From the sequence record MZ956763.1: a stretch of DNA of 64,000 bases; one strand, given 5' to 3'. The translations under genes and the position numbers were made by a program. This DNA comes from a phage. Shown here in pieces: positions 2,374 to 60,101 of this stretch (position 1 is the stretch's first letter; every line of letters begins with the position of its first letter). The notes under the pieces were generated by a model that saw only the letters and a program-made list of their open reading frames with translations, had not been told where the DNA came from and did not search any database.

Positions 2374-2564
2374 TATTCAATATCAATAAGCTCTTGTGCA
2401 ATGCTTTTCAGGTTACCTTTCAAGAAAACCTTCTCAGAACCTGAAAGAGATGAATTGTCAATTAGTCTGTTCATCCTCTCAAACAACTTCTGCTTACGGT
2501 TCTTGATAGTTTCCTTTGAAGCACCTTTCATCATCGCTGCATGGGTTCTTCCACGGTGGCTCAT
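2355..2564 (-). CDS. hypothetical basic protein
   Basis: 69 aa, Lys/Arg rich. Confidence 0.4.
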   Translation of the reverse strand: MSHRGRTHAAMMKGASKETIKNRKQKLFERMNRLIDNSSLSGSEKVFLKGNLKSIAQELIDIEYWRHQK

Positions 2565-2615
2565 AAGCCCTCCTATATAAGATATTGTATAAGGTACTCT
2601 TCCATGAGCACCTTG

Positions 2616-3143
2616 TCAACTTAGTTTTGCAAACTCTCCGTGGAGTTTCATAGCAGCTTCACAGTAAGCTTTGTGGGCTTCTTCAGGTGTGTCATAAGTA
2701 CCTACATGTATCTTCCTTTTTTTATAGTTAATTTGTGCAATCCATTTCCCTGTTTTCTTCTTCAATGACACCCCTTTGAATCCTGACTTATTGGTTGCTA
2801 ATTTACCCTTATTCCAAGCACTTTGGAAATCATCAACTACCCTCAAGTTAACAATTCTGTTGTCTAAAGAATCACCATTGATATGTTCAATGATACCATC
2901 TGGTAATTCTCCATAGACATACAGCCATGCAAGTCTATGAGCTTTATAGCTTTTCTTGTCAACAAAAATTACTACTTGCTTATGCCCTGTGGAGTCTACT
3001 TGAACACTCCCAGCTACTTTACCTGCGTACCTGCTGTTAAAAACTTTTGACGACCGTGTATTTCCATTTCTGGGTAGCCAAGTAAAGACCCCGCTATCGG
3101 GGTCATAACTGAGTAGCTCCTTTAAACGATTTTCTGTAAGCAT
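2616..3143 (-). CDS. HNH homing endonuclease with AP2-type DNA-binding domain
   Basis: HNH-like region HRLAWL...EHINGDSLDNRIVNLR; C-terminal AP2-like GFKGVS...GKWIAQI...GTYDTPEEAHKAY. Confidence 0.7.
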   Translation of the reverse strand: MLTENRLKELLSYDPDSGVFTWLPRNGNTRSSKVFNSRYAGKVAGSVQVDSTGHKQVVIFVDKKSYKAHRLAWLYVYGELPDGIIEHINGDSLDNRIVNLRVVDDFQSAWNKGKLATNKSGFKGVSLKKKTGKWIAQINYKKRKIHVGTYDTPEEAHKAYCEAAMKLHGEFAKLS

Positions 3144-3152
3144 TTCAACACC

Positions 3153-5852
3153 TTAGTGAACTTCCAACCAGCTCTTTCCAACTTTACCTGTGCCAGTTAC
3201 CAGTGTTTCACTCTTAAGCCCTAAGTTCTTAGAGGCTTGTCCGTAATACCAATCAGTGACAGCTTTCACCTCTGCCGTCATACTTTCTGGGCATTCCCAA
3301 CTTGTCTCGTCGTGATAGGAGCACAATAAACGAGCACCTATAGCTGGTTTGCGACCGTTTAACTTCATCAAACCTTCGTCAATCATACGACGGCAAGCGA
3401 GGTTAATTGCCTCGTTCTGAATCTGGCTTTCCGAACCCATGAGCAAATAATTCAATAACTTATGTGGAGATTTACACCACAACCAAGCTCCAGCAACCTT
3501 TACAAAACCCCCTTTAGAGATTGCAGCAGTCTTACCAAACACCTCTTCAAGTGCCTTTTTAGTCGCTTTGTAGTCAGCTTCCAAGTCATCTAGCAGTTTC
3601 TTAATTTTAGGCAAACGAATAAAGTAAGTCTGTTTAGTCAGTGCGCCTTCCTGAGTAGTTGCAGCTTTAATCGTCTTAGCAAACTTCTCATCACCTGCAC
3701 CGAACAGCAGTGCATAGATACCATTCTTAGCTTTCTTACGACCCTTGCTAATCTCATGGAGAAGGTTCTCATCCTGAGTAGCTCGACAAGTTAAGATATC
3801 CTGCTCATCATTCAAGCTAAAGTAAATGCTGTTCAATGTGTGTGCATCAGTCCCTGAATAGACAACGTAAAGGTCATTCTCAGAGTCATAGCGAAGGTAC
3901 TTATCAATCTCTGGGTTGAGGTACTCATCAAAGTGTTTGCAGTAATAGCGTCCATCTTCTTGACGAATAAACTCAATCTCTTCTTTACCTTGCGTTACCG
4001 CTTTGGTGAAGTCTTTGTCACCCATAAAGTTACAAAGAAGAACTAGCTGGGCTGAGTTCATATCTACAGAGACAACGTTAGTGCCTTCTTCACAAATCCA
4101 CACTGCCCTCATTGGTTCCCCATAGACAGCAGCACCAGACGGTACGTTTACAATACCATATTGTGTCATACGTCCAGTTGAAGTACCAAACACCATTGCA
4201 CCAGCACTAAGGCGACCATCAGGACGAATCTGGTTCAACCAACCTTTTTCATCATCCTTTGAGTTCTCAATAGTTCTGCGTCGGTGCATCAAAGTATAGT
4301 ATTTCGCAATCTTCTGTCCAAGCTCACCTTCAATCGTATCATAAGATGATTCAGTAAGTTTTGGTGAAGTACGGATTAAGCAAGGCTCAAGCAAATCTGT
4401 GTATTTCTTCACAGACCAGTTATGCTCAATGTACTGGACACCTTCGTGTTCAACATAACTCAAACCACACCGTTCCACCATCTCCTGCCACTTAGGATGT
4501 TTTGTAATCATCTTTTTGTTGTCTTTGAAACGACAAACTTTGACAGGACGACCATCCGAGTCTTTCTTGTAGTTCCAGTCATCTGGAATCCAACCAACTG
4601 ATTTCAGGTAGTCTTTAACAACTGCTACCTGAGTCATACGAGAAACTTCGAACTCAATTGGTGTATATGGTGCATCAATCAAACCTGTGTAGCGACTTGA
4701 CTCAAGTTCAAAGTGGTTAACAACATGACTGTTATAGTACTTCACAGTCTTAACTGTTTTTACTGGCTTCCAGTCTTTGCATTTCTTACCAATCTTTGCA
4801 TTCAACTCATTGCAAATTGCACGAGCATCCTTCATTGCTACAAAGCCTTCCTTGTACTCTTCACCAGTTACAGAGTTGGTTGGTGTGTAGCAATTCCGCT
4901 TTTCAATGTTAAAAATCTTTGTAGTTGGCTTACCAAATGGCTTGATTTCATATGTCTGCATCTCACCGTTACGTACCTGTTGGCGATACTTTGTCTTAGG
5001 GTACTTGGTAATTCTCTTCAGTCCATCTGCATGACCGAATGCTTCAACATACTCATTCCAAGCTTTTGCAAATTCTTCTCCAGTGACTTTACCTTTAGTC
5101 TTAATAGTTGGAGGAAGATGTGGTTCAACTTCTGAAGCAAGCTCGTTAGTCAACTTGTCAAGTTCCTTTACATGAAACTCCATAAGCTCTTTATCAGCTT
5201 TCCAACCATTGATAGCTTGTTGACTCATCCAGAAAGATGTTTCTTTAGCTCGCATGTAGGTTTCATAAGTATCTACGCCACACTTCTTTAACTTCAGATA
5301 TTCATTATCCAATGCACGTTTAGTTTTGGCGTTAATACGGATATCCTCTACAACACGAGTGAAGATTTCTGCATTCCACACACCCCAATGTTCAATCTCT
5401 GGTTTACGGACACCAACACGAGCACCCCATGCAGCCAAACCATGAGCACCTTTATAGCCCTTTGGAGTTGGTCTATCCATCCACTGAACACGAGACTGAA
5501 TAAGAGAATCCTGAAAGAAATTACTCCACGGCTTACACTTTGGATTATCAAAGTTCCACAAATCAGGTGCAATGTGATTGAAAACCCACCAGTCATACCC
5601 CAGACCATTATGGATGCAAAGTCGTTTTGCCTTTAACGCAAACTCAACACCTTCACGCAAGCCACCCTTAATGTACTTGGTATACTTGTGACCGAGGATA
5701 GGCTCATCTGTAAAGACCCATACAGGTGGCTCTTCATCGTCAGATTTATAGTCTGCGAAAGCCATTACGTGCACTTTAGTGAACTCAAGGAGTAAACCAT
5801 CAGTTTCTGTATCACCAACTAAATGTAAGTTTTTAAAATCTACGTTTTCCAT
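3153..5852 (-). CDS. DNA polymerase, family A, with 3'-5' exonuclease domain
   Basis: Exo motif VGDTETDGL near N-terminus; motif-B-like KAKNGIYALLFGAG; motif C YHDE; start set at second ATG (MENVDF) which has GAGGGAG SD; ORF track starts at 5882. Confidence 0.85.
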   Translation of the reverse strand: MENVDFKNLHLVGDTETDGLLLEFTKVHVMAFADYKSDDEEPPVWVFTDEPILGHKYTKYIKGGLREGVEFALKAKRLCIHNGLGYDWWVFNHIAPDLWNFDNPKCKPWSNFFQDSLIQSRVQWMDRPTPKGYKGAHGLAAWGARVGVRKPEIEHWGVWNAEIFTRVVEDIRINAKTKRALDNEYLKLKKCGVDTYETYMRAKETSFWMSQQAINGWKADKELMEFHVKELDKLTNELASEVEPHLPPTIKTKGKVTGEEFAKAWNEYVEAFGHADGLKRITKYPKTKYRQQVRNGEMQTYEIKPFGKPTTKIFNIEKRNCYTPTNSVTGEEYKEGFVAMKDARAICNELNAKIGKKCKDWKPVKTVKTVKYYNSHVVNHFELESSRYTGLIDAPYTPIEFEVSRMTQVAVVKDYLKSVGWIPDDWNYKKDSDGRPVKVCRFKDNKKMITKHPKWQEMVERCGLSYVEHEGVQYIEHNWSVKKYTDLLEPCLIRTSPKLTESSYDTIEGELGQKIAKYYTLMHRRRTIENSKDDEKGWLNQIRPDGRLSAGAMVFGTSTGRMTQYGIVNVPSGAAVYGEPMRAVWICEEGTNVVSVDMNSAQLVLLCNFMGDKDFTKAVTQGKEEIEFIRQEDGRYYCKHFDEYLNPEIDKYLRYDSENDLYVVYSGTDAHTLNSIYFSLNDEQDILTCRATQDENLLHEISKGRKKAKNGIYALLFGAGDEKFAKTIKAATTQEGALTKQTYFIRLPKIKKLLDDLEADYKATKKALEEVFGKTAAISKGGFVKVAGAWLWCKSPHKLLNYLLMGSESQIQNEAINLACRRMIDEGLMKLNGRKPAIGARLLCSYHDETSWECPESMTAEVKAVTDWYYGQASKNLGLKSETLVTGTGKVGKSWLEVH

Positions 5853-6109
5853 TTTTACTCCCTCTAAAATCATTAACCTCATACATTACTGCAAAAAATT
5901 ATAAAAAGCAAGTTGACAATGTGCTTGACAAGGTGTTAATCTTTGCGAAGTGGGTTTTTACTTAAAAGGTTACTTAACAGTTTAACTATACAGATACTTT
6001 AAAACTCTTAAAAGATTATTTAATAGCTTTTAAAAAGCTTTAAAGTATAACGTATAGAATACGTTAAGATAAAAGATTAAAACTTAATAGTTACTTAAAA
6101 GAGGCTTAC

Positions 6110-6532
6110 ATGCAGAAAATGTTTGTTCACCCAGACATAGCTGACTTTGTTAGAGCTTTGCAGAAGTTGGAAGAACTTGACATTGCTGCTCAACGGGAAT
6201 ATGCTCACCATCACAGGAGAATGGTTGATATACAACATGAGATAGAGTTGTCTGAAAACTATGAAGATGACTTAAAATGCTCTGTATTTGAGCATATGAA
6301 AGATGTTGCTACAGCGAGACGTAAAGCTAAAGACACAGTTGCTTTACTAGATTCTCTTAAAAAGAGGTTGCAAAGTGGTACAGACCTGTGTAATCTAGCG
6401 TCACTGATTAACGATGTTGAAACTTCTTGGGATAGACATTACTATCCACGTTCTGAAAAGACACTTGACTTTTCTTCATCAGAAAACTTAAAATGTTCTA
6501 GAAAGAAACTTAACCAACTGAGAGAGAAATAA
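6110..6532 (+). CDS. hypothetical protein
   Basis: 140 aa ORF, first gene of plus-strand block after divergent promoter region. Confidence 0.45.
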   Translation: MQKMFVHPDIADFVRALQKLEELDIAAQREYAHHHRRMVDIQHEIELSENYEDDLKCSVFEHMKDVATARRKAKDTVALLDSLKKRLQSGTDLCNLASLINDVETSWDRHYYPRSEKTLDFSSSENLKCSRKKLNQLREK

Positions 6533-6533
6533 T

Positions 6534-7346
6534 ATGAACACTACTGTAGACCAAATGCTTAAAGAAAAAGGTATTGACGAAGCATTCTTAATCAATGCCG
6601 TAGAAAGCATGGCTATGATTCTTCGTGGAAACAACTACACAGAACGGTTTATGCCTGCAAGCTATAACTTGCCTAAAGACAAGTCTGATAACGGTGCTTT
6701 TGCAGAACAGGTTAACATGATGTTGACAGACACTTCACTAGCTCTGGCATCTATCGCTGTTGGTGTTGACGCACTTGCTGAGTTCATTTTTTATGAAATG
6801 CAAAAGAATGACTATATCAGGATGTCAGACGAAAATAAAGAACTGTTGCTGACTCAGGATAATGATTCCCTTATTGATACAATCATTGCATCAACAAGTG
6901 CTGTTATGGCTGCTCTTGAGAAGCGCATGGAAGAGAAGCTTTCACGATATGAAAAGTTTGATTGGGGTGTAGAAGAGTTAACCCCACGAATCAGAGAGAT
7001 TATCCAGCAAACTAAAGAGTCTTTAGCAGAAGCTGTGAAAGATGATTCTGTAGCTGATGTAGAACCACTACAGGTGAAGGTCGCTCTGATGATTCCAGCT
7101 ATTTCTACAATGATGAATATCGTTGCACTAATCCAACTTGCTCAGATGTTGGGTGTAACCATTGAGTTCGTTGAGGAGATGACTGGTGGTGTCAGTATGC
7201 AAGCAATCAATGATGTTTTGGTAAACATTGGTGCTTCAATCATTGAAGAGAAGCTTCGCATTCACTTTGGTGACGATTTTGTGAAGCAAGTCTCAGCTAT
7301 GGCTGAAAAAGAGCACTCACAAATTACTAGTGAACAACTTCACTAA
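6534..7346 (+). CDS. hypothetical protein
   Basis: 270 aa ORF, followed by hairpin+T-run. Confidence 0.5.
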   Translation: MNTTVDQMLKEKGIDEAFLINAVESMAMILRGNNYTERFMPASYNLPKDKSDNGAFAEQVNMMLTDTSLALASIAVGVDALAEFIFYEMQKNDYIRMSDENKELLLTQDNDSLIDTIIASTSAVMAALEKRMEEKLSRYEKFDWGVEELTPRIREIIQQTKESLAEAVKDDSVADVEPLQVKVALMIPAISTMMNIVALIQLAQMLGVTIEFVEEMTGGVSMQAINDVLVNIGASIIEEKLRIHFGDDFVKQVSAMAEKEHSQITSEQLH

Positions 7347-7364
7347 GCATTTATAAATCTTACA

Positions 7365-7388
7365 AGCCTCCTTAATTGGGGGCTTTTT
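7365..7388 (+). terminator. intrinsic terminator
   Basis: AGCCTCCTTAATTGGGGGCTTTTT. Confidence 0.45.
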
Positions 7389-7406
7389 AGTAATTAAGGG
7401 GATAAA

Positions 7407-8150
7407 ATGAGTAATATTATTGCGTTTACTGGAAAGGCACGTTCTGGAAAAGATACCTCATGTTCTATTGTTAAGAATATCTTAGAAGATGAGTATGGCT
7501 ACAATGTTGCAGTAATGGCCTATGCAGACAATCTTAAGCTGTCTGCATCAAAGATATTTGACTTGACATGGAATGACCTGTACGGTGAAACTAAAGAGAC
7601 TCCACAGGTTTTTGATTTATCATACTCTGAACTGATGTTCAAAGTTACGGAAGCTATGGAGTTCACCTTCAGAGATGAACGTTACCATATGGACTTTAAG
7701 CTTATGTCAGAGTTAACCGGACGATTAATCATGGAACTTAAGAAGGTTGCTAAACCAACCTTATTAACACGTCTGGGATTTAGTAAAAAGTATAAATTCT
7801 CATCAAGACAAATTCAACAGATTTGGGGAACTGAAGTTATCCGTAAAGTTATGGGTGACAAATTCTGGGCTAAAGACCTCGAAAAACGGATGGCTCGATT
7901 CTTTGAATCTTGTTCACTTAGAAATCAAGAAGGTGTTGTTTTAATCAGTGACTTAAGGTTTGACTCTGAAGCTGAGTGGTTGAGCAGATTTGCACACCAA
8001 ACTATTGAAGTAAAAAGAGACAATGTGGATAAAGTTTCATCACATGTTTCAGAAAATGGAATTTCTACCAAATATGCACGTGACATTATCCATAATAATG
8101 GTACTCTTGAAGACCTTGAAAGTAAGCTAAGAGCTATCCTGAAAATTTAA
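7407..8150 (+). CDS. deoxynucleoside monophosphate kinase (P-loop)
   Basis: N-terminal IAFTGKARSGKDT Walker A resembling T4 gp1-type dNMP kinases. Confidence 0.65.
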   Translation: MSNIIAFTGKARSGKDTSCSIVKNILEDEYGYNVAVMAYADNLKLSASKIFDLTWNDLYGETKETPQVFDLSYSELMFKVTEAMEFTFRDERYHMDFKLMSELTGRLIMELKKVAKPTLLTRLGFSKKYKFSSRQIQQIWGTEVIRKVMGDKFWAKDLEKRMARFFESCSLRNQEGVVLISDLRFDSEAEWLSRFAHQTIEVKRDNVDKVSSHVSENGISTKYARDIIHNNGTLEDLESKLRAILKI

Positions 8151-53425: not shown

Positions 53426-53506
53426 TTTTAAAAGGTGTTGACAGACTCTACAAAGTTACTCTAAAGTCTGTCACATCAAACAACAAATGAGAGAAGAGAG
53501 TAAAAT

Positions 53507-54922
53507 ATGAGCGAGTTATTTAAACATGCGCACCTTCATGCAGGTCGAACTGAAAATGGTGCTGTAAACCATACTTCATCAATGTCTGCTCTGGTAGACT
53601 TCTACAAAGCTGCTGGTTCAAGCCGTAGCAATGTAGAAATCTTACCAGACCTGTTCTACAAAGCTTTGCATGAGGATGTTGATGTTGCAGTTCGTATTTT
53701 ACTGCATATGCGAGATGTACGAGAAGGTATGGGTGAGCGTAAAGCCTTCAGGACTGTTTTGCTTCAAGCAATTGAAGATAAAGTTTTAGAGTCTACACAG
53801 GTTCTTCGCATTATGGATAAGATTGCAGAACTTGGTCGTTTTGATGACTTCAAAATCTTCGTAGGTACTCGCTTCGAGACAGATGCCTTCAAACATTTAG
53901 AAGCAGCATTACTAGACCCTGCAACAGCAGGTTTGGCAGCTAAGTGGTTGCCACGAGTCAAACCACGTCACAAACAGTTTGTAAAACGTTTCTGCAAGTT
54001 TGCCAACTTGAGTGAGAAAGAGTACCGCACACTGTTGTCTGCACTATCTGATACAGTTGAGCAAAAAATCTCTGCTAATGAGTTTGGCAAGATTGACTAC
54101 AGCAAGATTCCTTCACTTGCTGCTGCACGTTACCAAAAACTGTTTAACCGTAAAGATGGAGAACGCTACAAAGCTTACATTGAGTCTTTATCAAAAGGTG
54201 AGACTAAGATTAACGCTGGTGCTGTTTACCCATACGATGTGATTAAATCTGTCAAGCATGGTAATGCAGATGTTGCTAATGAGCAGTGGAAAGCACTACC
54301 AAACTGGATGGCAGAAGGTGAAAACATCTTGTGTATGACTGATGTTTCAAGCTCAATGTCTTGGGTGAATTTTGGCTCCATTACTGCTCTGGATATTGGT
54401 GTATCACTTGCATTGTATGTGGCAGAACGCAATACAGGTTGCTTTAAGAATGAGTTGATGGTTTATTCAACAAACCCTCACTTCATCGAACTTAGTGGTG
54501 ATTTACGAAACCGCCATCGTCAGGTGATGCGACATGTTGAATATGGTTCAACTAACTTACAAGCAGCTTTTGACCGTATTCTTGAGACAGGTAAAAGAAA
54601 CAACTTGACTCAGAAAGATATGCCAAGTAAGCTTATCATCTTCTCCGATATGGAGTTCAATCAGGTTGATGGAGCTAACGGTCGTACAAACTTTGAAGCA
54701 ATTCAGAGTAAGTACAAGAAAGCTGGATACGAAATGCCACAACTGGTATTCTGGTACTTAGCAAACCGTAATGGTACTTGCGAAGTGTCTGTTAAGGATA
54801 ACGGTGTAGCAATGGTATCTGGTTTCTCTCCAGCCACTTTAAAAGCTCTGCTTGGTGGTGAGAAGTTTGACCCAATCAGCGTAATGCTCAAAGCAGTAAT
54901 GATTGACCGCTATATCTGGTAA
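53507..54922 (+). CDS. vWA-domain protein, possible Ro60/TROVE-like RNA-binding protein
   Basis: 471 aa; C-terminal MIDAS-like DVSSSMS; sits immediately upstream of the tRNA/ncRNA cluster; TROVE assignment is inference. Confidence 0.4.
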   Translation: MSELFKHAHLHAGRTENGAVNHTSSMSALVDFYKAAGSSRSNVEILPDLFYKALHEDVDVAVRILLHMRDVREGMGERKAFRTVLLQAIEDKVLESTQVLRIMDKIAELGRFDDFKIFVGTRFETDAFKHLEAALLDPATAGLAAKWLPRVKPRHKQFVKRFCKFANLSEKEYRTLLSALSDTVEQKISANEFGKIDYSKIPSLAAARYQKLFNRKDGERYKAYIESLSKGETKINAGAVYPYDVIKSVKHGNADVANEQWKALPNWMAEGENILCMTDVSSSMSWVNFGSITALDIGVSLALYVAERNTGCFKNELMVYSTNPHFIELSGDLRNRHRQVMRHVEYGSTNLQAAFDRILETGKRNNLTQKDMPSKLIIFSDMEFNQVDGANGRTNFEAIQSKYKKAGYEMPQLVFWYLANRNGTCEVSVKDNGVAMVSGFSPATLKALLGGEKFDPISVMLKAVMIDRYIW

Positions 54923-54939
54923 AAAGTTTTAAAAAGGGT

Positions 54940-54968
54940 ATTGACAATGTGTTTGATACCCTTTAATA
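54940..54968 (+). promoter_or_regulatory. sigma70-like promoter upstream of tRNA cluster
   Basis: TTGACA, 17 bp, TAATAT. Confidence 0.5.
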
Positions 54969-55087
54969 TGTTCTACATAGAAACGAAACGAGAGCTTTTC
55001 TAAGATACTGAAAAATATTTTAAAAAAGTTCTTGACAATCACTAAAAAATAATGTTAAAGTGGTTACATAGAGTTTGAAAAGTTTAT

Positions 55088-55164
55088 CTCTGTTTAGCTC
55101 AGCTTGGTAGAGCGTTCCGTTTGGGGCGGTAAGGCCGGAGGTTCAAGTCCTCCAACAGAGACCA
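55088..55164 (+). tRNA. tRNA-Pro(TGG)
   Basis: manual fold: 7-bp acceptor, D-arm TAGCTCAGCTTGGTAGAGC, anticodon loop TTTGGGG, T-loop TTCAAGT, CCA encoded. Confidence 0.65.
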
Positions 55165-55171
55165 AATTAAT

Positions 55172-55249
55172 GTTCCAGTAGACAAAATGGTAAAGTCACC
55201 ACTCTTTCAAAGTGGATATCTGAGGGTTCAAATCCCTTCTGGAACGCCA
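55172..55249 (+). tRNA. tRNA-Glu(TTC)
   Basis: manual fold: acceptor GTTCCAG/CTGGAAC, anticodon stem CCACT/AGTGG, loop CTTTCAA. Confidence 0.6.
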
Positions 55250-55254
55250 GTTTT

Positions 55255-55330
55255 GACAGAAGACCAATTACAGCAAACTTAATCTTATTCATCTGAAGGT
55301 AAATCGGACAAAGAAGAGATTTGGTCTGGT
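55255..55330 (+). ncRNA. stem-loop element A of a 5-member family
   Basis: 5' CAGAAGACCAATTACAGCAA pairs with 3' TTGGTCTGG; between tRNA-Glu and tRNA-Met. Confidence 0.4.
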
Positions 55331-55340
55331 CATTAAGAAT

Positions 55341-55417
55341 TGCGGGTATAGAGAAAGGGCGTCTCACATGTCTCATTAGCATGGTATCGGCAGGTTCGAC
55401 TCCTGCACCCGCCTCCA
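55341..55417 (+). tRNA. tRNA-Met(CAT), possibly initiator (1-72 mismatch)
   Basis: anticodon stem CATGT/GCATG, loop CTCATTA; T-arm GCAGG-TTCGACT-CCTGC; position 1 unpaired. Confidence 0.5.
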
Positions 55418-55420
55418 AAT

Positions 55421-55488
55421 TTACAGAAGACCGTTTACAGCAATATTTATTAAATTTTTAGCGGAAAAATTGAAAGATACGGTCTGGT
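55421..55488 (+). ncRNA. stem-loop element B
   Basis: 5' CAGAAGACCGTTTACAGCAA, 3' ACGGTCTGG; internal hairpin AATTTTTAGCGGAAAAATT. Confidence 0.4.
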
Positions 55489-55500
55489 AATACTAAACAT

Positions 55501-55577
55501 GGTTAGGAAGCACATAAGGTATGTGCGGTCGCCTGTTAAGCGAATGGCACAGGGTTCGAATCCCTGACTAACCGCCA
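55501..55577 (+). tRNA. tRNA-Asn(GTT)
   Basis: D-stem GCAC/GTGC, anticodon loop CTGTTAA, T-loop TTCGAAT. Confidence 0.65.
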
Positions 55578-55646
55578 AATTTAGGAGAGAAGCGATTGCT
55601 CACCGATTTGTAAGGTGCAAGTCCTTAGCCTGAATAGAAATTAAAT

Positions 55647-55734
55647 GTGTCGTTATCCCGTAGATGGTAGCGGTGGGGACTGTAAATCCCTTGTCATTGA
55701 GACTCGGTAGGTTCGACTCCTACACGGCACACCA
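55647..55734 (+). tRNA. tRNA-Tyr(GTA), long variable arm
   Basis: 88 nt; anticodon stem GGGGA/TCCCT, loop CTGTAAA; acceptor GTGTCGT/ACGGCAC. Confidence 0.55.
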
Positions 55735-55739
55735 ATAAA

Positions 55740-55817
55740 GGCTATGTAGTTTAATAGGGTTAAAATACTCCCCTGTCACGGGAGATGATGTGAGTTCAAG
55801 TCTCATCGTAGCCGCCA
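55740..55817 (+). tRNA. tRNA-Asp(GTC)
   Basis: acceptor GGCTATG/CGTAGCC, anticodon stem CTCCC/GGGAG, loop CTGTCAC. Confidence 0.65.
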
Positions 55818-55902
55818 AATTATAATAAGTATTTCAAAATGATGTTTTGAGAGGGCTATTTAGCCCCTCCCTTAAAGAGTTCTTACGAGTATTCTTTAAA
55901 GG

Positions 55903-55979
55903 AGCAGAAGACCAAATACAGCAAGTTACTTAAAATTTCAAGCCAATTTAATTTTGAAAAATTTAAAACTTGGTCTGGC
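55903..55979 (+). ncRNA. stem-loop element C
   Basis: 5' CAGAAGACCAAATACAGCAA, 3' TTGGTCTGG. Confidence 0.4.
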
Positions 55980-55988
55980 TCAACAAAT

Positions 55989-56123
55989 TTACAGAAGACC
56001 GTTTACAGCAAAACTTAAACAATCTATTTCTCGGTAAAGAAAAGGAGAAGGTTCGATTCCTTCACTCGGCAGATGTCGAGTTGGTGTAATGGTAGCACTT
56101 AAGATGGTAAACAACGGTCTGGT
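55989..56123 (+). ncRNA. Y-RNA-like (YrlA-type) tRNA-mimic element D
   Basis: terminal stem AGACCGTT/AACGGTCT encloses T-arm-like GAAGG-TTCGATT-CCTTC, acceptor-like hairpin ACTCGGC-AGAT-GTCGAGT and D-arm-like GTG-TAATGGTAG-CAC, i.e. tRNA modules in permuted order with no anticodon arm. Confidence 0.45.
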
Positions 56124-56271
56124 AATTATCTTTGTAGATAAGTTATTAAGCTTACCTGTGAGTATGCGACCACAAAGGGTGAAAGGGTAAATTCTAGATT
56201 TAAACCCAAAAAGGCACATCGCTACAGACCTTAAGCAAGTCTGGGTAGCTTATCTACAAAGATAATTTAAT

Positions 56272-56347
56272 GGAAGTGTAGCAGAATGGTGATGCGGCAG
56301 ACTTTTAATCTGACAGGCGATGGGTTCGAATCCCTCCACTTCTACCA
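56272..56347 (+). tRNA. tRNA-Lys(TTT)
   Basis: anticodon loop CTTTTAA; acceptor GGAAGTG/CACTTCT; weak T-stem. Confidence 0.55.
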
Positions 56348-56351
56348 AAAT

Positions 56352-56428
56352 GGTTCAGTCGCAGATAAGGTAATGCAAGGGTTTCATAAGCCCTATGAAT
56401 GTGGGTTCGATTCCCATCTGAACCTCCA
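56352..56428 (+). tRNA. tRNA-Met or Ile2 (CAT)
   Basis: acceptor GGTTCAG/CTGAACC; anticodon stem AGGGT/GCCCT, loop TTCATAA. Confidence 0.55.
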
Positions 56429-56430
56429 AT

Positions 56431-56505
56431 TGTGGGTTAGCATAAATGGTAATGCAAACGGCTGATAACCGTTAGAAGAGGGTTCGATACCCTCACCTAC
56501 AACCA
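56431..56505 (+). tRNA. tRNA-Ile(GAT)
   Basis: anticodon stem AACGG/CCGTT, loop CTGATAA; T-arm GAGGG-TTCGATA-CCCTC. Confidence 0.6.
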
Positions 56506-56520
56506 ATTTCAATAGAGTTG

Positions 56521-56549
56521 TTGACATTGAGATGTGACTACTTTATAGT
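56521..56549 (+). promoter_or_regulatory. sigma70-like promoter inside tRNA cluster
   Basis: TTGACA, 17 bp, TATAGT. Confidence 0.55.
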
Positions 56550-56842
56550 AACTAAAATACTTCACAATATGTATAATTCAAACACCAATACATGAGCGTT
56601 AGACGTAACACAATGTGGGGAAATTTGTTGTACATATTCTGAATAGTTTTCGTTGCGTAGCGTCTATTTTGCAAATTTAAAATAAATGCAAACGACAATG
56701 TTTTTCTGGCAGTAGCTTGATAGGCTAAACACCAGTGAGGTCTTCCAATCCCTCATCAAAGAATTTGGCGTACTCGCCCACGGTATGATTAATAAGGTGG
56801 GCATCTTTAAGGGCTTTCTAAGAGAGTCTTTAAAGATAATTA

Positions 56843-56924
56843 CGGGGCGTATCTCAGCGGTCTTCTAAACCGCCGTTAACCGAGTAAGTGGAGTATGCGG
56901 GTTCGAGTCCTGCCGCCTCGACCA
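56843..56924 (+). tRNA. atypical tRNA-like gene, possibly tRNA-Arg(TCT)
   Basis: good acceptor (CGGGGCG/CGCCTCG), T-arm and a perfect hairpin GCGGT-CTTCTAA-ACCGC, but no canonical D-arm and a 23-nt region before the T-arm. Confidence 0.3.
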
Positions 56925-57067
56925 ATTTAGTTAGCAGATTACTTAGACGACCTAAGCGGGTCTTCCTGTAGGGAGGTGGTCTGTATCTCATGTTTTCCAG
57001 AACATGTAAATAATCTGAGAAGGGGCTTTACAGTGTTGAGATAATACGGTAAGCTTCGAATTATAGT

Positions 57068-57150
57068 GTGGGACGATGTTAAGACTCTAAGGCATGAGCA
57101 ACGGCCTCCAAAACCGTTTCAAAGGGGTTCAACTCCTCCGTCCCATGCCA
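57068..57150 (+). tRNA. atypical tRNA-like gene, possibly tRNA-Trp(CCA)
   Basis: acceptor GTGGGAC/GTCCCAT, T-loop TTCAACT, anticodon-like loop CTCCAAA on stem ACGG/CCGT; D region about 7-8 nt too long. Confidence 0.3.
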
Positions 57151-57163
57151 AAGTCTTATTAGG

Positions 57164-57251
57164 GGTAGGTAGCGGCTAATGGCAGCCAAACAGTCTTGAA
57201 AACTGTTGCCACTGTAGAGATACGGTGAGGGTTCGACTCCTTTACTTACCG
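57164..57251 (+). tRNA. tRNA-Ser(TGA), long variable arm
   Basis: anticodon stem ACAGT/ACTGT, loop CTTGAAA; D-loop TAATGGCA; CCA not encoded. Confidence 0.55.
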
Positions 57252-57407
57252 CCTAATAAGATTTAAAGCCAAGCTTCATTCGGATGTCGCTTTGGTATCC
57301 CGCGTGTATTGTCGTACACACTGATAAAACACCTAGTAGGTGTCACGGAGAAGAGATAATATCAAGCTCTCCAAAGGTTCTAGTCACCGGATTAAACAAG
57401 ACTATGC

Positions 57408-57429
57408 AAAGACCTTTTTAGGTCTTTTT
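57408..57429 (+). terminator. intrinsic terminator inside tRNA cluster
   Basis: AAGACCTTTTTAGGTCTTTTT. Confidence 0.5.
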
Positions 57430-57508
57430 AGAGGGCTTCTAAGGTTATTACAGCTTGTTGTGGAACCTTGTTGCTTAGGTTCTTAGAAGTTCTCTAAAAA
57501 GATTTAAT

Positions 57509-57586
57509 GGGAGATTGACGGTAATTGGTAAACCTACCATCCTTAGAAGTTGGTGTTTGAGGGTTCGAATCCCTTGTCTCCTACCA
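57509..57586 (+). tRNA. tRNA-Leu(TAG), short variable loop
   Basis: anticodon loop CTTAGAA; A73 discriminator; T-arm GAGGG-TTCGAAT-CCCTT. Confidence 0.5.
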
Positions 57587-57593
57587 AATTAAT

Positions 57594-57669
57594 GCAGGTG
57601 TAGCAAAATGGTTATGCGGCTGACTCTTAATCAGTAAGACGATGGGTTCAATTCCCTCCACCTGTACCA
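57594..57669 (+). tRNA. tRNA-Lys(CTT)
   Basis: same scaffold as tRNA-Lys(TTT); anticodon loop CTCTTAA. Confidence 0.55.
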
Positions 57670-57675
57670 GACATT

Positions 57676-57751
57676 GGGGTCATAGTTTATATGGTTAAAA
57701 TTCGAGTTTTGCAAACTTGGGAACTGAGTTCAATTCTCAGTGACTCCACCA
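57676..57751 (+). tRNA. tRNA-Ala(TGC)
   Basis: anticodon loop TTTGCAA; T-arm CTGAG-TTCAATT-CTCAG. Confidence 0.6.
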
Positions 57752-57757
57752 ATTAGT

Positions 57758-57832
57758 GCATCCATAGTTTAAACGGGAAAATTACAGTCTTCCAAACTGA
57801 GGTTGAGGGTTCGATTCCCTCTGGATGCTCCA
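57758..57832 (+). tRNA. tRNA-Gly(TCC)
   Basis: perfect acceptor GCATCCA/TGGATGC; anticodon loop CTTCCAA. Confidence 0.6.
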
Positions 57833-57839
57833 AATTAAT

Positions 57840-57915
57840 GCTCCTATCGTATAATAGGCTATTACGGTTGCCTTGTAAGCAACTTATCAGGGTTCGAATC
57901 CTTGTGGGAGCACCA
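57840..57915 (+). tRNA. tRNA-Thr(TGT)
   Basis: anticodon stem GTTGC/GCAAC, loop CTTGTAA. Confidence 0.65.
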
Positions 57916-57916
57916 A

Positions 57917-58006
57917 TTCAGAGGTCAAGTGAAAGACCGCTGGTGTCAACTGAAGACCGTAACAAATTCCACGGAGTTGAGTTAGCGGCACAACTTCAGA
58001 CCTCTT
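57917..58006 (+). ncRNA. stem-loop element E (related to A-D)
   Basis: outer stem AGAGGTC/GACCTCT; contains GAAGACCGTAACAAA resembling the family 5' motif. Confidence 0.3.
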
Positions 58007-58010
58007 TCAC

Positions 58011-58085
58011 ACTCGCTTAGTTTATATGGTAAAACACCACCCTTACAAGATGAAGAAAAAGGTTCAAGTCCTTTAGTGAGTACCA
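58011..58085 (+). tRNA. tRNA-Val(TAC)
   Basis: acceptor ACTCGCT/AGTGAGT, D-stem GTTT/AAAC, T-arm AAAGG-TTCAAGT-CCTTT, anticodon loop CTTACAA on a weak stem. Confidence 0.45.
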
Positions 58086-58086
58086 T

Positions 58087-58164
58087 GTTCCAGTATCCCA
58101 ATTGGCAGAGGATGCAAGCTCAAACCTTGTATTAGTGACGGTTCGAATCCGTCTTGGAACACCA
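58087..58164 (+). tRNA. tRNA-Leu(CAA), short variable loop
   Basis: Leu-like D-loop CAATTGGCAGA; anticodon loop CTCAAAC; A73. Confidence 0.5.
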
Positions 58165-58183
58165 ATTTTAAGAGGCTATTTAG

Positions 58184-58741
58184 ATGAGATATTTGAAGTA
58201 TGCTTCATGGATTTTCCTAGCTTTACTAGAGCCATTTGCAGCAACCCTATCAGTCATCTTAGCACCTTTCGTAGTTCCATTCTACAGTGAGAAGAAAGGA
58301 CACCTACCTTTTGGATTCAGATGGATGGAGACCTATGACAACCCAATTGATGGTGATGAAGGTCACGTTAAAAGATGGGCTAAGATTAGAAAGATTGGTA
58401 AGCTGGGTGTCTACATGCAGAGAGTTGGATGGCTCTGGAGAAACAAAGCTTATAACTTCTCTTACCATGTATTAGGAAGAGATGTAAAAGATGTTACTAA
58501 GTGGAAAGGTAATATCAACGTAAGTTCTGACCCTGAAGATAATCAGACAGGTTATCTCCTAATGTGGAACAACAATGCTTGGGGATTATTCGCTTTTATT
58601 CCGTCAATTAAAATCTTTGGTAAACAGTTTTACTGGAGAATTTATGTTGGATGGAAACTAAAAAGTGTTGTCCCAGAAGAAAGAGCATTCTCAAGGGAAA
58701 GAGTTATGTTGGCATTCTTTATTCATCCACTGAGAAAGTAA
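58184..58741 (+). CDS. hypothetical membrane protein embedded in tRNA cluster
   Basis: 185 aa ORF starting just after a tRNA; N-terminal hydrophobic segment. Confidence 0.5.
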   Translation: MRYLKYASWIFLALLEPFAATLSVILAPFVVPFYSEKKGHLPFGFRWMETYDNPIDGDEGHVKRWAKIRKIGKLGVYMQRVGWLWRNKAYNFSYHVLGRDVKDVTKWKGNINVSSDPEDNQTGYLLMWNNNAWGLFAFIPSIKIFGKQFYWRIYVGWKLKSVVPEERAFSRERVMLAFFIHPLRK

Positions 58742-58749
58742 AGATTTAA

Positions 58750-58825
58750 AGGGGATTAGTTTACAAGGTTAAAACCTCGGTCTTTGAAATCGAAGAAGTT
58801 GGTTCAATTCCAACATCCCCAGCCA
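58750..58825 (+). tRNA. tRNA-Gln(TTG)
   Basis: D-stem GTTT/AAAC; anticodon loop CTTTGAA; T-arm GTTGG-TTCAATT-CCAAC. Confidence 0.55.
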
Positions 58826-58827
58826 AT

Positions 58828-58906
58828 GCTCCATTACTCCAATTGGCAGAGAGGCCAGACTTAAAATCTGTGTTATGTATCGGTTCGAATCCGATATGGA
58901 GTACCA
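58828..58906 (+). tRNA. tRNA-Leu(TAA), short variable loop
   Basis: D-arm CTC-CAATTGGCAGA-GAG; anticodon loop CTTAAAA; A73. Confidence 0.5.
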
Positions 58907-58911
58907 ATTTT

Positions 58912-58987
58912 AGCGGTATAGCATAATTGGCAATGCAACAGTCTCTGAAGCTGTCCTATTAAGGTTCAAATCCTTATACCGCTGCCA
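58912..58987 (+). tRNA. tRNA-Gln(CTG)
   Basis: perfect acceptor AGCGGTA/TACCGCT; anticodon loop CTCTGAA. Confidence 0.6.
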
Positions 58988-59018
58988 CTTCTAAGGGTTC
59001 TTACGAGAGTCCTTAAAT

Positions 59019-59094
59019 GTGGCCTTATCATAAATGGTAATGACCCATGCTGTGAACATGGTCTATACGGGTTCAAATCCCGTAGGTCACCCCA
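59019..59094 (+). tRNA. tRNA-His(GTG)
   Basis: anticodon stem CCATG/CATGG, loop CTGTGAA; C73 discriminator. Confidence 0.65.
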
Positions 59095-59099
59095 ATTTA

Positions 59100-59177
59100 T
59101 AGTCCAAGTAGCTTATATGGTTAAAGCGCGTGTCTGAAAAACATGAGAAGAGGGTTCAAATCCCACTGGACTACCAA
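59100..59177 (+). tRNA. tRNA-Phe(GAA)
   Basis: perfect acceptor TAGTCCA/TGGACTA; anticodon stem CGTGT/ACATG, loop CTGAAAA; 3' end reads CAA. Confidence 0.5.
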
Positions 59178-59192
59178 TTTCAAAGGTGCTTA

Positions 59193-59927
59193 ATGAAAGA
59201 GATGACAGAACAAGGTAAGGAGATTTTTAATCTCTTAAAAACCGGTAAAGGGTTTTCTAACCCACTTATTACTGGTGCAGCAGTTCTCGGTGGAACCGTA
59301 GCTGCCTCTACATCACTTGTAAGCTCTATTAGCTCTGTAACAGACCCTACAATGAATGAGAAACTTGTTGCTGCTGGACTTACAACAGTCCTTCTAAACA
59401 GCTTTACAACAAGCCTGACAAGCACTACAGCAACTACTAAGACCCTAACAGACTATGGTCAAAAGTCTATTGATGAGTTTTCATCACGTATGCAGGTAGC
59501 AAAGGGATACTCCAATGTTATGGGTGCAGCAGGAGAACAAGTTGGTTGTACACCGTTCAGTGGTATTATGGGTGTTGCTACAGAATATGGTCAAAAAGCT
59601 ATTGATACGATTAACAGTACACTAGAGAGTGTTAACGATGTATTAAGTGACTTACAAGACGCTATTGACAAGGGTCTTGATACTGTTTCTGATTTAGCTA
59701 ACCAAGCTGTCAGTAAGATTAATGAAGGTATCTCAAAGATTACAGCTTATGCAGATGAAGTTGTGCAGATGATTGAAGAAGAAGCTGCCCTTATTGCAGA
59801 GTACCTTAAAACGAATATCAATGGGTTCTTAGCAGGTATCTTACCAGACTGGTTTGATGATGCTTGTAAAACTGGTGTGATTGACACTATTGCAACACCA
59901 GAAATGAAGAACGCATTACAGAAATAA
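59193..59927 (+). CDS. hypothetical Ser/Thr-rich protein
   Basis: start set at ATG after tRNA-Phe (MKEMTEQ); track ORF start 59130 would overlap the tRNA. Confidence 0.5.
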   Translation: MKEMTEQGKEIFNLLKTGKGFSNPLITGAAVLGGTVAASTSLVSSISSVTDPTMNEKLVAAGLTTVLLNSFTTSLTSTTATTKTLTDYGQKSIDEFSSRMQVAKGYSNVMGAAGEQVGCTPFSGIMGVATEYGQKAIDTINSTLESVNDVLSDLQDAIDKGLDTVSDLANQAVSKINEGISKITAYADEVVQMIEEEAALIAEYLKTNINGFLAGILPDWFDDACKTGVIDTIATPEMKNALQK

Positions 59928-59928
59928 T

Positions 59929-60021
59929 GGAAGATTAACCCTAAAAGGTAAGGGAGCAGTTTGCTAAACTGCCAGTAGCTGAGAAATCGGTGTACCAGTT
60001 CAAGTCTGGTATCTTCCTCCA
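59929..60021 (+). tRNA. tRNA-Ser(GCT), long variable arm
   Basis: 93 nt; anticodon stem GCAGT/ACTGC, loop TTGCTAA; T-arm ACCAG-TTCAAGT-CTGGT. Confidence 0.6.
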
Positions 60022-60025
60022 ATTT

Positions 60026-60101
60026 GAATCCGTGACAGAAATGGCTATGTGCCTGTCTGCAAAACAGGTTTATAAGGGTTCGAGTCCCTTCGGATTCTCC
60101 A
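60026..60101 (+). tRNA. tRNA-Cys(GCA)
   Basis: anticodon stem CCTGT/ACAGG, loop CTGCAAA; U73 discriminator. Confidence 0.65.

Follow-up and report, generated by a model that had tools for sequence, protein, structure and literature searches.

The tRNA gene cluster of a Felix O1-like phage (Felixounavirus; record MZ956763.1) harbors four elements, A to D, which are probably small non-coding RNA genes of the Y RNA type and whose products would be the partners of a Ro60-shaped protein encoded just upstream. The elements were analyzed within a 64,000-nt stretch of phage DNA, referred to here as the window. All four of them (4/4) carry an exact copy of the 5′ motif CAGAAGACC-N3-TACAGCAA (0.27 by chance in the window). 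A scan of the whole 64-kb window with the pattern CAGAAGACCNNNTACAGCAA, tolerating up to three mismatches, returned four matches, all of which are perfect and on the plus strand (starts at 55257, 55424, 55905, and 55992), and none of 100 shuffled sequences gave four matches. The elements lie 332–1203 nt downstream of the gene for the Ro60-fold protein and on the same strand. Their predicted folds share one architecture, i.e., an outer helix of 4 bp, an AGA/G internal loop conserved among A–D, an inner helix of 7–8 bp, and then the unpaired sequence UACAGCAA. Element C has ATACAGCAA in place of TTACAGCAA, and the outer helix of element B reads TTGC/GCAA in related phages, which represents a compensatory change.

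The original prediction, made without database searches, had described a family of five stem-loops, A to E, and its boundaries for A–D agree with ours to within 1–3 nt. The pairing it proposed between a 3′ GGTCTGG and a 5′ AGACC is present, as part of a larger structure in which an outer helix and an internal loop precede the inner helix, and the spacer within the 5′ motif, given as two to three nucleotides, is 3 nt long in every copy. Family membership stands for A–D, each of which has the exact motif, and had to be withdrawn for E. This separate hairpin, which is conserved in related phages, has no match to the motif with up to three mismatches, lacks both (A/U)CAGCAA and the AAG...CUG closing pairs, and goes undetected by the family covariance model. 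It has only the 9-mer GAAGACCGT in common with B and D.

Table 1. Predicted features of the tRNA cluster region and of element D (window coordinates).
Feature	Position	Strand	Basis and remarks
Gene for 471-aa Ro60-fold protein	53507..54922	+	Pfam DUF2828 and DUF7788; PHROG 850 'RNA-binding protein'
Sigma-70-like promoter match, 5′ of tRNA-Pro	54941-54969	+	consensus match only, 10/12
Sigma-70-like promoter match, 5′ of tRNA-Pro	55032-55061	+	consensus match only, 10/12
Element A, short Y-like RNA, flanked by tRNA-Glu and tRNA-Met	55254..55332	+	motif scan, fold, covariance model; outer helix TGAC/GTCA, loop AGA/G, inner helix AGACCAA/TTGGTCT, unpaired UACAGCAA at 55269-55276, apical hairpin
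Element B, short Y-like RNA, flanked by tRNA-Met and tRNA-Asn	55421..55490	+	motif scan, fold, covariance model; outer helix TTAC/GTAA, inner helix AGACCGU/ACGGUCU
Element C, short Y-like RNA	55902..55981	+	motif scan, fold, covariance model; outer helix GAGC/GCUC (GAGC/GCTC in DNA), inner helix AGACCAA/UUGGUCU
Element D, long YrlA-like RNA	55989..56125	+	motif scan, fold, pattern search; closing module as in A–C, outer helix TTAC/GTAA
D, inner stem CUUA/UAAG	56014-56017 with 56100-56103		
D, V hairpin	56027-56042		
D, T arm GAAGG-UUCGAUU-CCUUC	56047-56063		
D, capped acceptor-like hairpin	56064-56081		
D, D arm	56083-56099		
Element E, separate hairpin	57917..58006		conserved in related phages

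None of the elements A–E was called as a tRNA by ARAGORN or by the Rfam tRNA model. Rfam Y RNA models gave no match in the window, neither at the gathering threshold nor at E-values up to 10, and none in 15 distant homolog loci. The sequence GNCGAA, taken from the bacterial Ro-binding motif GNCGAAN0-1G, is absent from the plus strand between 55254 and 56125; instead of this motif, or of GGUCCGA in vertebrates, A–D have the invariant U(A/U)CAGCAA. The RNA elements are unannotated in the database records examined, and Rfam contains no model for the RNA family.

The 471-aa protein encoded upstream consists of a ring of HEAT repeats and, after it, a vWA domain that bears the MIDAS motif DVSSS (residues 279–283), in which D279, S281, and S283 are invariant in the alignment. 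Its AF2 model has a pLDDT of 88.7 and a pTM of 0.89, and the best 11 Foldseek matches in the PDB are all Ro60, Rsr, or TROVE structures (E-values of 5e-8 to 1e-6, TM-scores up to 0.65). Alignments to the Ro60 structures are full-length (515–569 columns) at 11–16% identity, and the Ro60 of Thermus phage phiLo is among the best fold matches. Neither phmmer nor a profile search of the PDB with this protein found Ro60, and its Pfam matches are limited to DUF2828 and DUF7788, with none to TROVE. According to the structural model, its relationship to Ro60 is thus confined to the fold, and we presume that it is the partner of the A–D RNAs. Homologs are found in at least 710 phage records, which include Felix O1-like phages, Vibrio, Listeria, Staphylococcus, Campylobacter, and Enterococcus phages, and cluster L mycobacteriophages, among others.

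Beside the genes of these homologs, and on the gene strand, the module [A/U][A/U]G-N7-(A/U)CAGCAA ... N′-C[U/A]G recurs in distant phages (Listeria, Mycobacterium, Yersinia, and many metagenomic ones) as well as in bacterial and MAG contigs. In a set of 83 loci, consisting of 80 viral contigs around homologs with 38–99% identity and three GenBank Ounavirinae regions, a fixed-register search for [AT]G-N7-ACAGCAA...C[AT]G gave 75 exact matches on the gene strand, distributed over 41 loci, and none on the opposite strand. With one core mismatch tolerated, 123 gene-strand matches stand against five on the opposite strand and 2–7 in shuffled sequences. At least one copy is present in 48 of the 75 distant loci, at a median distance from the gene of 202 nt for upstream and 372 nt for downstream copies, and between roughly one quarter and one third of the homolog loci lack an element in the flanks examined. 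Three tandem copies adjoin the homolog gene in Listeria phage LP-064 and in the mycobacteriophages LeBron and MiniMac, where the homologs are annotated as 'RNA-binding protein' and 'Ro-like RNA binding protein', respectively. In Yersinia phage P778, module copies sit between tRNAs.

Across distant phages the helix covaries while the unpaired motif stays constant, and at most helix positions all four types of Watson-Crick pairs are seen. The covariation score is 0.80, compared to 0.20 for shuffled sequences and 0.10–0.15 with partners slid. The underlying alignment (A2) was chosen for pairing, so that its percentage of paired positions is circular and the statistical weight lies on the strand and shuffle controls. 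A covariance model (R2) trained exclusively on non-Ounavirinae elements, i.e., with no Felix-like phage in the training set, has B (35.4 bits, E = 7e-7), C (31.1 bits, E = 1e-5), and A (29.6 bits, E = 2.5e-5) as its top three matches in the window, and the following match has an E-value of 0.2. Because the core of D is long, R2 detects only its 5′ half; the pattern search was positive for this element. In another 87 loci, of which 83 were not among the training loci, R2 found 85 matches on the gene strand versus two on the opposite strand.

These data also bear on the possibility that the repeats work as DNA, be it as promoters, operators, or recombination or mobility sites of a MITE-like repeat family. 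All four elements are packed into 900 bp, TTGACA or TTTACA precedes A and B/D, and a promoter scan of the elements yielded a weak 9/12 match that overlaps the 5′ end of B, the only element with such a match. However, the −35-like hexamer is missing from C and from the distant homologs, which also gave no promoter match, there is no consistent −10 box, and sigma-70 hexamers at 16–18 nt spacing common to the copies were not found. Likewise, there are no target-site duplications and no terminal inverted repeats beyond the helix. The helix sequence differs completely between phages with pairing retained, and orientation follows the gene (75:0 and 85:2), indicating that selection acts on the transcript and not on duplex DNA. 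A function at the DNA level is therefore hardly credible, in agreement with the original prediction, which had disfavored promoters.

In element D, the closing module surrounds a long core (fold z = −3.1) in which an inner stem encloses a V hairpin, a T arm, a capped acceptor-like hairpin, and a D arm. The consensus structure of six Ounavirinae shows three compensatory pairs in the acceptor-like hairpin, and the T-arm stem covaries among 12 distant YrlA-like members. ARAGORN called no tRNA in D in its native order; when D was circularly permuted by a cut at the capped hairpin, a tRNA was called at default thresholds with one of the three linker loops tried. Element D thus contains a permuted tRNA-like domain with its arms ordered as in the bacterial Y RNA YrlA (V, T, capped acceptor, D; PMC4201824), and at least eight distant members have the same order. 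The Ro60-fold neighbor, the linkage of the module to the homologs in distant phages, and this arm order support the view of the original prediction that the elements are a structured, Y-RNA-like sRNA family with members of several sizes.

The location in a tRNA cluster, the T- and D-arm sequences in D, and weak pseudo-tRNA matches in the cluster could also be taken as signs of decayed or rearranged tRNA genes that are now functionless. Such an origin without function is very unlikely, as A–C have no tRNA features and the permuted arms and capped acceptor of D are retained across genera, with compensatory changes. Moreover, of the 252 records that match D, 210 do so with at least 95% identity, and the closing module is kept in phages as distant as those of Listeria and Mycobacterium.

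Judged by their sequence, the two promoter matches 5′ of tRNA-Pro are likely the start of a transcript that bears the tRNAs together with A–D, and no terminator-like sites were found on the plus strand between 54965 and 59249. A–D would be co-transcribed with the phage tRNAs from these promoters (∼54941 and 55032) and, as every element occupies an interval bounded by tRNA genes or other spacer RNA, might be freed as discrete RNAs with defined ends when the neighboring tRNAs are processed, through the action of the same enzymes. The same layout would fit a cis-acting processing or stability signal, composed of the helix and UACAGCAA and read by an RNase or the Ro-like protein within the polycistronic tRNA transcript, with the inter-tRNA pieces as discarded spacers. 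The original prediction had named a protein-recognized processing signal as its alternative. Inter-tRNA gaps are precisely occupied by the elements in Yersinia phage P778 and L009 as well as in the window phage, and one locus has a complete tRNA-Thr between the two helix strands of the module. In addition, a mini-copy within the protein gene's 5′ UTR is seen in several phages, indicating that the module can act in cis. We nevertheless consider a mere cis-signal unlikely, as the tandem elements of LeBron, MiniMac, and LP-064 lie at the gene without an intervening tRNA and the module is tied to the protein gene and not to tRNA genes. Furthermore, conservation and structure extend to the cores, one of which is a tRNA mimic whose arms covary, and this would be superfluous in a spacer.

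If A–D are Y-RNA-type genes, the candidate site for the Ro-like ring protein would be the bulged helix, whose inner part starts with A.G, A-U, and G-C, along with the invariant unpaired UACAGCAA; binding of the ring protein to this closing module is proposed on the model of Ro60 and its Y RNAs. The variable cores, three small YrlB-like hairpins in A–C and one YrlA-like permuted tRNA mimic in D, may serve as adaptors that link the ring protein with other factors or regulate access to the ring, as suggested by the analogous complexes of Rsr, Y RNA, and PNPase. During infection, the surveillance, decay, or repair of RNAs or tRNAs might thereby be redirected.

Instead of partner-recruiting adaptors, the RNAs could mainly be decoys or operators through which the Ro-like protein is titrated and controls its own level, or tRNA-shaped decoys for host nucleases that target tRNAs. 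We give this only a slim chance. In line with such a role, mini-hairpins in several phages immediately precede the protein gene's ribosome-binding site (L010:3953-3987, L061:3906-3944, L078:3886-3943), D contains a tRNA mimic, and gp53, the LeBron homolog, shows moderate toxicity if overexpressed by itself (PMC13148394). In contrast, no 5′-UTR copy was found in the window. Decoys and adaptors differ in downstream function and not in the identity of the elements, and on this point the present evidence favors neither.

Ro60 and Y RNAs form a conserved RNA-surveillance system that is poorly understood, and to our knowledge only a handful of bacterial Y RNAs have been studied, all via TROVE annotation and the CGAA motif. 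Our sequence and model data point to a second Ro60-shaped protein family which is undetectable at the sequence level and has its own putative RNA partners, with a simple searchable signature and highly diverse cores. If true, Felix O1-type phages, which are workhorse phages of Salmonella and E. coli, would have four new genes, and the so far unexplained spacers between their tRNA genes would be accounted for. With a small phage, a host amenable to genetics, and RNAs of four designs, the system would be tractable for asking what Ro-type rings and Y RNAs do, and why phages place them beside tRNA and RNA-repair genes. More tentatively, the DUF2828/DUF7788 ring protein and the AAG-N7-U(A/U)CAGCAA...CUG RNAs might constitute a distinct and very widespread Ro-type RNP of phages and prophages, in which interchangeable RNA adaptors allow tRNAs and other RNAs to be protected, repaired, or re-routed against host attack. 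Small hairpins, 200-nt domains, permuted tRNA mimics, and even whole tRNAs would then act as adaptors, in addition to the operator copy in the 5′ UTR.

Phages T4 and T5 encode small stable RNAs other than tRNAs in their tRNA gene clusters, which are co-transcribed and co-processed with the tRNAs. A–D resemble them as non-tRNA RNAs within phage tRNA clusters; we know of no Ro-like gene adjoining the T4 and T5 RNAs. With metazoan Y RNAs and Ro60, the window family has in common small RNAs with variable upper loops whose paired ends form a bulged helix for a ring protein of HEAT repeats and a vWA domain. However, there is no sequence similarity, the conserved nucleotides are different, and the genes in the window are not Pol III units and give RNAs of phage origin.

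In the YrlA/YrlB and Rsr systems of Salmonella Typhimurium and Mycobacterium smegmatis (Chen et al. 2013, 2014; PMC4201824), as in the window, multiple RNA genes per locus lie at most a few hundred bases from the gene for the ring protein and share its strand, the paired ends of the RNAs form a stem adjoining a short conserved motif, and one RNA is tRNA-like with the arms in V, T, capped-acceptor, D order while the rest are short. In contrast to these systems, the window encodes a DUF2828/DUF7788 protein with a Ro60 relationship in fold alone, its RNAs carry (A/U)CAGCAA after a 7-bp helix opening with A.G/A-U/G-C instead of GNCGAAN0-1G, and four RNAs instead of two are located inside a phage tRNA operon. 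Thermus phage phiLo encodes phiRo60 with Yrl1 and Yrl2, and further phage carriers of Ro60 are mycobacteriophages, CcrColossus, and Bacillus phage G (PMC12135203) as well as mycobacteriophage ET08 (PMC4201824). A phage-borne Ro-type ring protein with adjacent Y-like RNAs is common to phiLo-type phages and the window, whereas the phiLo-type proteins are recognizable as TROVE/Ro60 with RNAs that bear the CGAA motif, and the window family has another sequence signature and occurs in other phage groups.

For the P100-like Listeria phage CKA15, HHpred linked CKA15_055, encoded downstream of tRNA genes, to Rsr, and very abundant non-coding transcripts up to 2 kb upstream of CKA15_055 were proposed by the authors to be Y RNAs (PMC12282133). 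P100-like Listeria phages encode a homolog with ∼29% identity to the window protein and, by genomic context, CKA15_055 appears to be this homolog. Unlike for the window family, no RNA motif or structure was defined in that study (PMC12282133). LP-064, a relative of CKA15, has its three tandem modules just upstream of the homolog gene, and according to a rough coordinate estimate via the related genome, the most abundant region of CKA15 appears to be located upstream of the three motif-bearing elements, at a distance of ∼1 kb.

A pattern search of the whole 64-kb window for CAGAAGACCNNNTACAGCAA, with up to three mismatches allowed, returned four matches, all of them exact and on the plus strand, compared to a chance expectation of 0.27 and with four matches reached in no shuffle. 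These correspond to elements A-D of the five-element family that had originally been predicted, whereas the fifth element, E, has no match. RNA folding showed that the ends are paired in each of A-D and that UACAGCAA is left unpaired. In these folds, the originally described terminal helix is part of a larger structure. Its outer helix is 4 bp long and reads TGAC/GTCA in A, TTAC/GTAA in both B and D, and GAGC/GCTC in C; an internal loop, AGA/G in every copy, separates it from an inner helix of 7-8 bp (AGACCNN/NNGGUCU). In related phages, the outer helix reads TTGC/GCAA in B and GGAGC/GUUCC in C, base changes which preserve complementarity and indicate that pairing is kept. The proposed comparison of copies and relatives for compensatory changes was positive, both for the outer helices of B and C and in distant homologs.

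Element E was rejected as a family member, since it lacks the motif in the pattern search of the window, went undetected by the family covariance model R2 and folds as a separate hairpin (z = -3.0) between tRNA-Thr and tRNA-Val. This hairpin is kept in Felixounavirus, Mooglevirus and Suspvirus, three genera of the Ounavirinae. As only GAAGACCGT is common to E and B/D, E may be either a copy that has decayed or another RNA altogether. The original observation therefore holds for four of the five elements.

Coordinates of features in the window, in fetched loci around homologs of the Ro-like protein (L numbers) and in Listeria phage LP-064
Feature	Sequence	Coordinates	Strand	Basis or remark
Inverted repeat in Ro-like gene leader	window	53441-53474	+	
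Ro-like gene	window	53507-54922		
24 tRNA genes	window	55088-60101	+	ARAGORN; Rfam agrees
Element A	window	55254-55332	+	pattern search, exact match at 55257
Element B	window	55421-55490	+	pattern search, exact match at 55424
Element C	window	55902-55981	+	pattern search, exact match at 55905
Element D	window	55989-56125	+	pattern search, exact match at 55992
Long hairpin	window	56124-56271	+	
Element E	window	57917-58006	+	
Palindromic spacer motif	window	55866-55902, 56806-56834, 57430-57500, 58989-59017	+	sequence likeness
Weak tRNA-like match	window	56843-56921	+	Rfam only, 31.7 bits (tRNA)
Weak tRNA-like match	window	57070-57144	+	Rfam only, 23 bits (tRNA-Sec)
Subclass with conserved core (example)	L010	3275-3371		
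tRNA-Thr(UGU) in family helix	L053	3733-3834		ARAGORN and Rfam
5' leader module copy	L010	3953-3987		
5' leader module copy	L061	3906-3944		
5' leader module copy	L078	3886-3943		
5' leader module copy	L083	3850-3941		
5' leader module copy	L033	~3949-4000		
5' leader module copy	L088	~2960-3005		
Consensus promoter and stretch without gene	LP-064 (L085)	2390-3030		
HD phosphohydrolase and RtcB RNA ligase	LP-064 (L085)	6078-8024		

Eighty viral contigs were fetched around homologs of the Ro-like protein, which in 75 cases share 38-48% identity with it. Here, TACAGCAA occurs 104 times on the gene strand versus 16 times on the other. In context, a stretch of variable sequence always precedes it, and the complement of this stretch is found 15-260 nt downstream. 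The parts keep a fixed register, in which [A/U][A/U]G, seven bases and (A/U)CAGCAA are followed by a core of variable sequence and by a 3' strand made up of the complement of at least the first five of the seven bases followed by C[U/A]G. Searching for this register in 83 loci (the 80 viral contigs and three GenBank Ounavirinae regions) gave 75 matches on the gene strand (41 of the 83 loci) and none on the opposite strand with an exact core, and 123 versus 5 with one core mismatch permitted (2-7 in block shuffles); these strict-pattern counts are lower bounds, as the pattern misses real variants such as the GG...CC closing pairs of Yersinia phage P778 and the T.C mismatches of long RNAs of the type seen in locus L011. 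One to four copies are present in 48 of the 75 distant loci, with a median distance to the gene of 202 nt for upstream and 372 nt for downstream copies, and a relaxed pattern is found in 56 of them (103 versus 9 matches).

When 66 distinct instances were aligned in fixed register, all Watson-Crick types occurred at the seven helix pairs, e.g., AU 23, GC 23, CG 12 and UA 6 at one of them; the closing G-C is invariant, and ten of the instances have U-A in place of the preceding A-U. Covariation scored 0.80 versus 0.20 for shuffled alignments and 0.10-0.15 with slid partners; because the instances had been pre-selected for pairing, the weight rests on the strand and shuffle controls, which are the real test. 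Rfam searches of the region (at gathering threshold and at E <=10) and of 15 distant loci (at gathering threshold) gave tRNA and tmRNA matches only.

As an independent test we used covariance model R2, whose training set of 32 short elements came from distant phages, those of Listeria and Mycobacterium among them, and contained zero Ounavirinae sequences. With filters off, its best match in the whole window is B (35.4 bits, E 7e-7); C comes second at 31.1 bits (E 1e-5) and A third at 29.6 bits (E 2.5e-5), while the fourth-best match reaches 15.1 bits and E 0.2. Due to its long core, D is detected in its 5' half only. A second set of 87 further loci, 83 of them outside the training loci, combined 80 bacterial or MAG contigs, identified via the protein, with loci from Ounavirinae and from phages of Vibrio and Yersinia; it yielded 87 matches at E <=0.1, 85 of them on the gene strand and the majority immediately upstream of the gene. 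A first model, R1, built from spliced ends with the 5' module joined to the 3' module, was discarded, as it was unable to span the real cores and matched only unrelated short hairpins.

The variable cores sort into conserved classes, since subclasses recur among the loci: one with the conserved core CCTTTCTGGAGGGGAAAGCAAAAACTCGCCAAAA is found in L010, L012, L017, L018 and L033, and a second with stem AGAGTGR and cores of ~96-230 nt in L010, L012, L018, L021, L033 and L083. In L053, a complete tRNA-Thr(UGU) lies between the 5' module (AAG GTTAGTT TCAGCAA) and the 3' helix strand, which looks like a whole tRNA serving as the core of a Y-like RNA.

The core of D itself is tRNA-like. Its fold (z = -3.1) starts with a V hairpin and continues with a T arm (GAAGG-UUCGAUU-CCUUC), a capped hairpin of 7 bp and a D arm (GGUGU-AAUGGUA-GCACU), all enclosed by a short stem, which is the same V-T-AS-D order as in YrlA (PMC4201824, section 6). 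Among six Ounavirinae the T and D arms are invariant, and the capped hairpin varies yet keeps pairing at three positions. In 12 distant long members, the T-arm stem is compensatory at four of five pairs and the loop GUUCRANNC is conserved; MAFFT and RNAalifold recovered the T arm alone from these YrlA-like members because the remaining arms were misaligned. ARAGORN made no tRNA call on D in native order. Once D had been opened at the capped loop and its original ends connected, a tRNA was called at default thresholds for one of the three linker loops that were tried, and the permuted distant member L073 gave a clean call. YrlA itself is a substrate for TruB, DusA, RNase P and the CCA-adding enzyme.

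The ORF that ends 332 nt upstream of A encodes a 471-aa protein with Pfam domains DUF2828 and DUF7788, assigned to PHROG 850 ('RNA-binding protein'). HMMER searches of the PDB with the single sequence and with a 38-sequence profile gave no match, and hence no Ro60. An AlphaFold2 model built on this alignment was confident (pLDDT 88.7, pTM 0.89), and each of the best 11 matches from a Foldseek search of the PDB is a Ro60 protein (Xenopus and human Ro60, Deinococcus Rsr, Thermus phage phiLo Ro60; E 5e-8 to 1e-6, full-length TM <=0.65, identity 11-16%), followed by isolated vWA domains at E > 2e-3. The likeness to Ro60 was thus found by fold search only, and not by sequence search of the PDB. MIDAS residues D279, S281 and S283 are invariant in the alignment. 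Together, the modeled structure and the blank HMMER searches indicate a Ro60 architecture in a sequence family not recognized as TROVE. Homologs are encoded in 710 phage records, among others of Felix O1-like, Vibrio, Aeromonas, Campylobacter, Listeria, Staphylococcus, Enterococcus, Bacillus and Mycobacterium phages; some Mycobacterium records carry the annotation 'Ro-like RNA binding protein'.

Copies of the module, often very short, end 5-15 nt upstream of the ribosome binding site of the Ro-like gene in several distant phages, and the copy in L088 overlaps the start codon, which points to possible translational autoregulation by the protein. A 5'-UTR mini-copy was not found in the window, only a promoter-overlapping hairpin: the leader contains an 8-bp inverted repeat, GACAGACT ... 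AGTCTGTC, that overlaps a promoter-like site and is followed by ACATCAA.

Region 54900-58200 is a phage tRNA cluster with 95-98% identity to many Felix O1-like phages (best, Salmonella phage Mushroom, 97.6%); it matched 369 records, 232 of them with >=80% query cover. Two sigma-70-like promoters lie upstream of tRNA-Pro, and no plus-strand terminator-like site was found between them and 59250, an arrangement in which A-D are probably co-transcribed with the tRNAs and freed via tRNA processing. The ring protein would most obviously recognize the invariant module, comparable to the bulged stem for Ro60, and the variable cores could act as adaptors or gates by analogy to the Rsr-Y RNA-PNPase complex (PMC4201824; PMC12135203). 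Since the system is located beside tRNA genes and sometimes RNA-repair genes in phages, we speculate on a role in tRNA/RNA surveillance, repair or counter-defence.

Phage Ro60 and Y-like RNAs have been described in mycobacteriophages, CcrColossus, Bacillus phage G and Thermus phage phiLo, cases which were sought from TROVE-annotated proteins and the CGAA motif (PMC4201824; PMC12135203). In contrast to these systems with a TROVE protein and CGAA RNAs, A-D lack GNCGAA and neighbor a DUF2828-type protein. For the latter, the searchable literature (DUF2828, Felix O1 ncRNAs, 'Ro-like' phage proteins) holds only the 'Ro-like' annotation, a toxicity phenotype of LeBron gp53 (PMC13148394) and the authors' unproven suggestion that abundant ncRNAs near CKA15_055 may be Y RNAs (PMC12282133), and it holds no description, motif or structure of the RNAs reported here. 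Thus, systems of this type are known, whereas such a protein family, such an RNA signature and a location in a tRNA operon are not. The 22 phages of Chen et al. 2014 may include a few DUF2828-type phages.

None of the records examined annotates the elements. LeBron and MiniMac carry three tandem elements of the UG...CA-G type directly 3' of the gene, the middle one being YrlA-like, and in Yersinia phage P778 the elements are interspersed with tRNAs, like those of Felix O1; their closing pairs are GG...CC, and they have an outer helix with an ACA/A loop. In Listeria phage LP-064, three tandem elements lie directly 5' of the gene, and an RtcB ligase is encoded a few genes downstream, together with an HD phosphohydrolase. 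Placed via the related LP-064, the abundant CKA15 transcripts (PMC12282133) appear, from their published coordinates, to correspond to a different non-coding stretch ~1 kb upstream of the motif elements; they were thus set aside as expression evidence. Upstream of its three elements, LP-064 has a strong consensus promoter followed by ~600 nt without a gene, which may be the extremely abundant CKA15 non-coding transcript.

The tRNA cluster contains further features of note. The ~150 nt between D and tRNA-Lys fold into a long hairpin (z = -6.4) whose basal stem spans 24 bp. This hairpin is kept in Mooglevirus and Suspvirus with several compensatory changes, does not contain ACAGCAA, and may represent a further structured RNA that lacks annotation. 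Several tRNA spacers share a similar palindromic motif, CTTTAAAG/CTTCTAAG ... TCTTTAAAG/TCCTTAAA, for which a degenerate pattern matches two copies versus 0.01 expected. ARAGORN made no tRNA call at the two weak tRNA-like matches; 'tRNA-OTHER' or pseudo-tRNAs annotated hereabouts in related GenBank records may be the same features.
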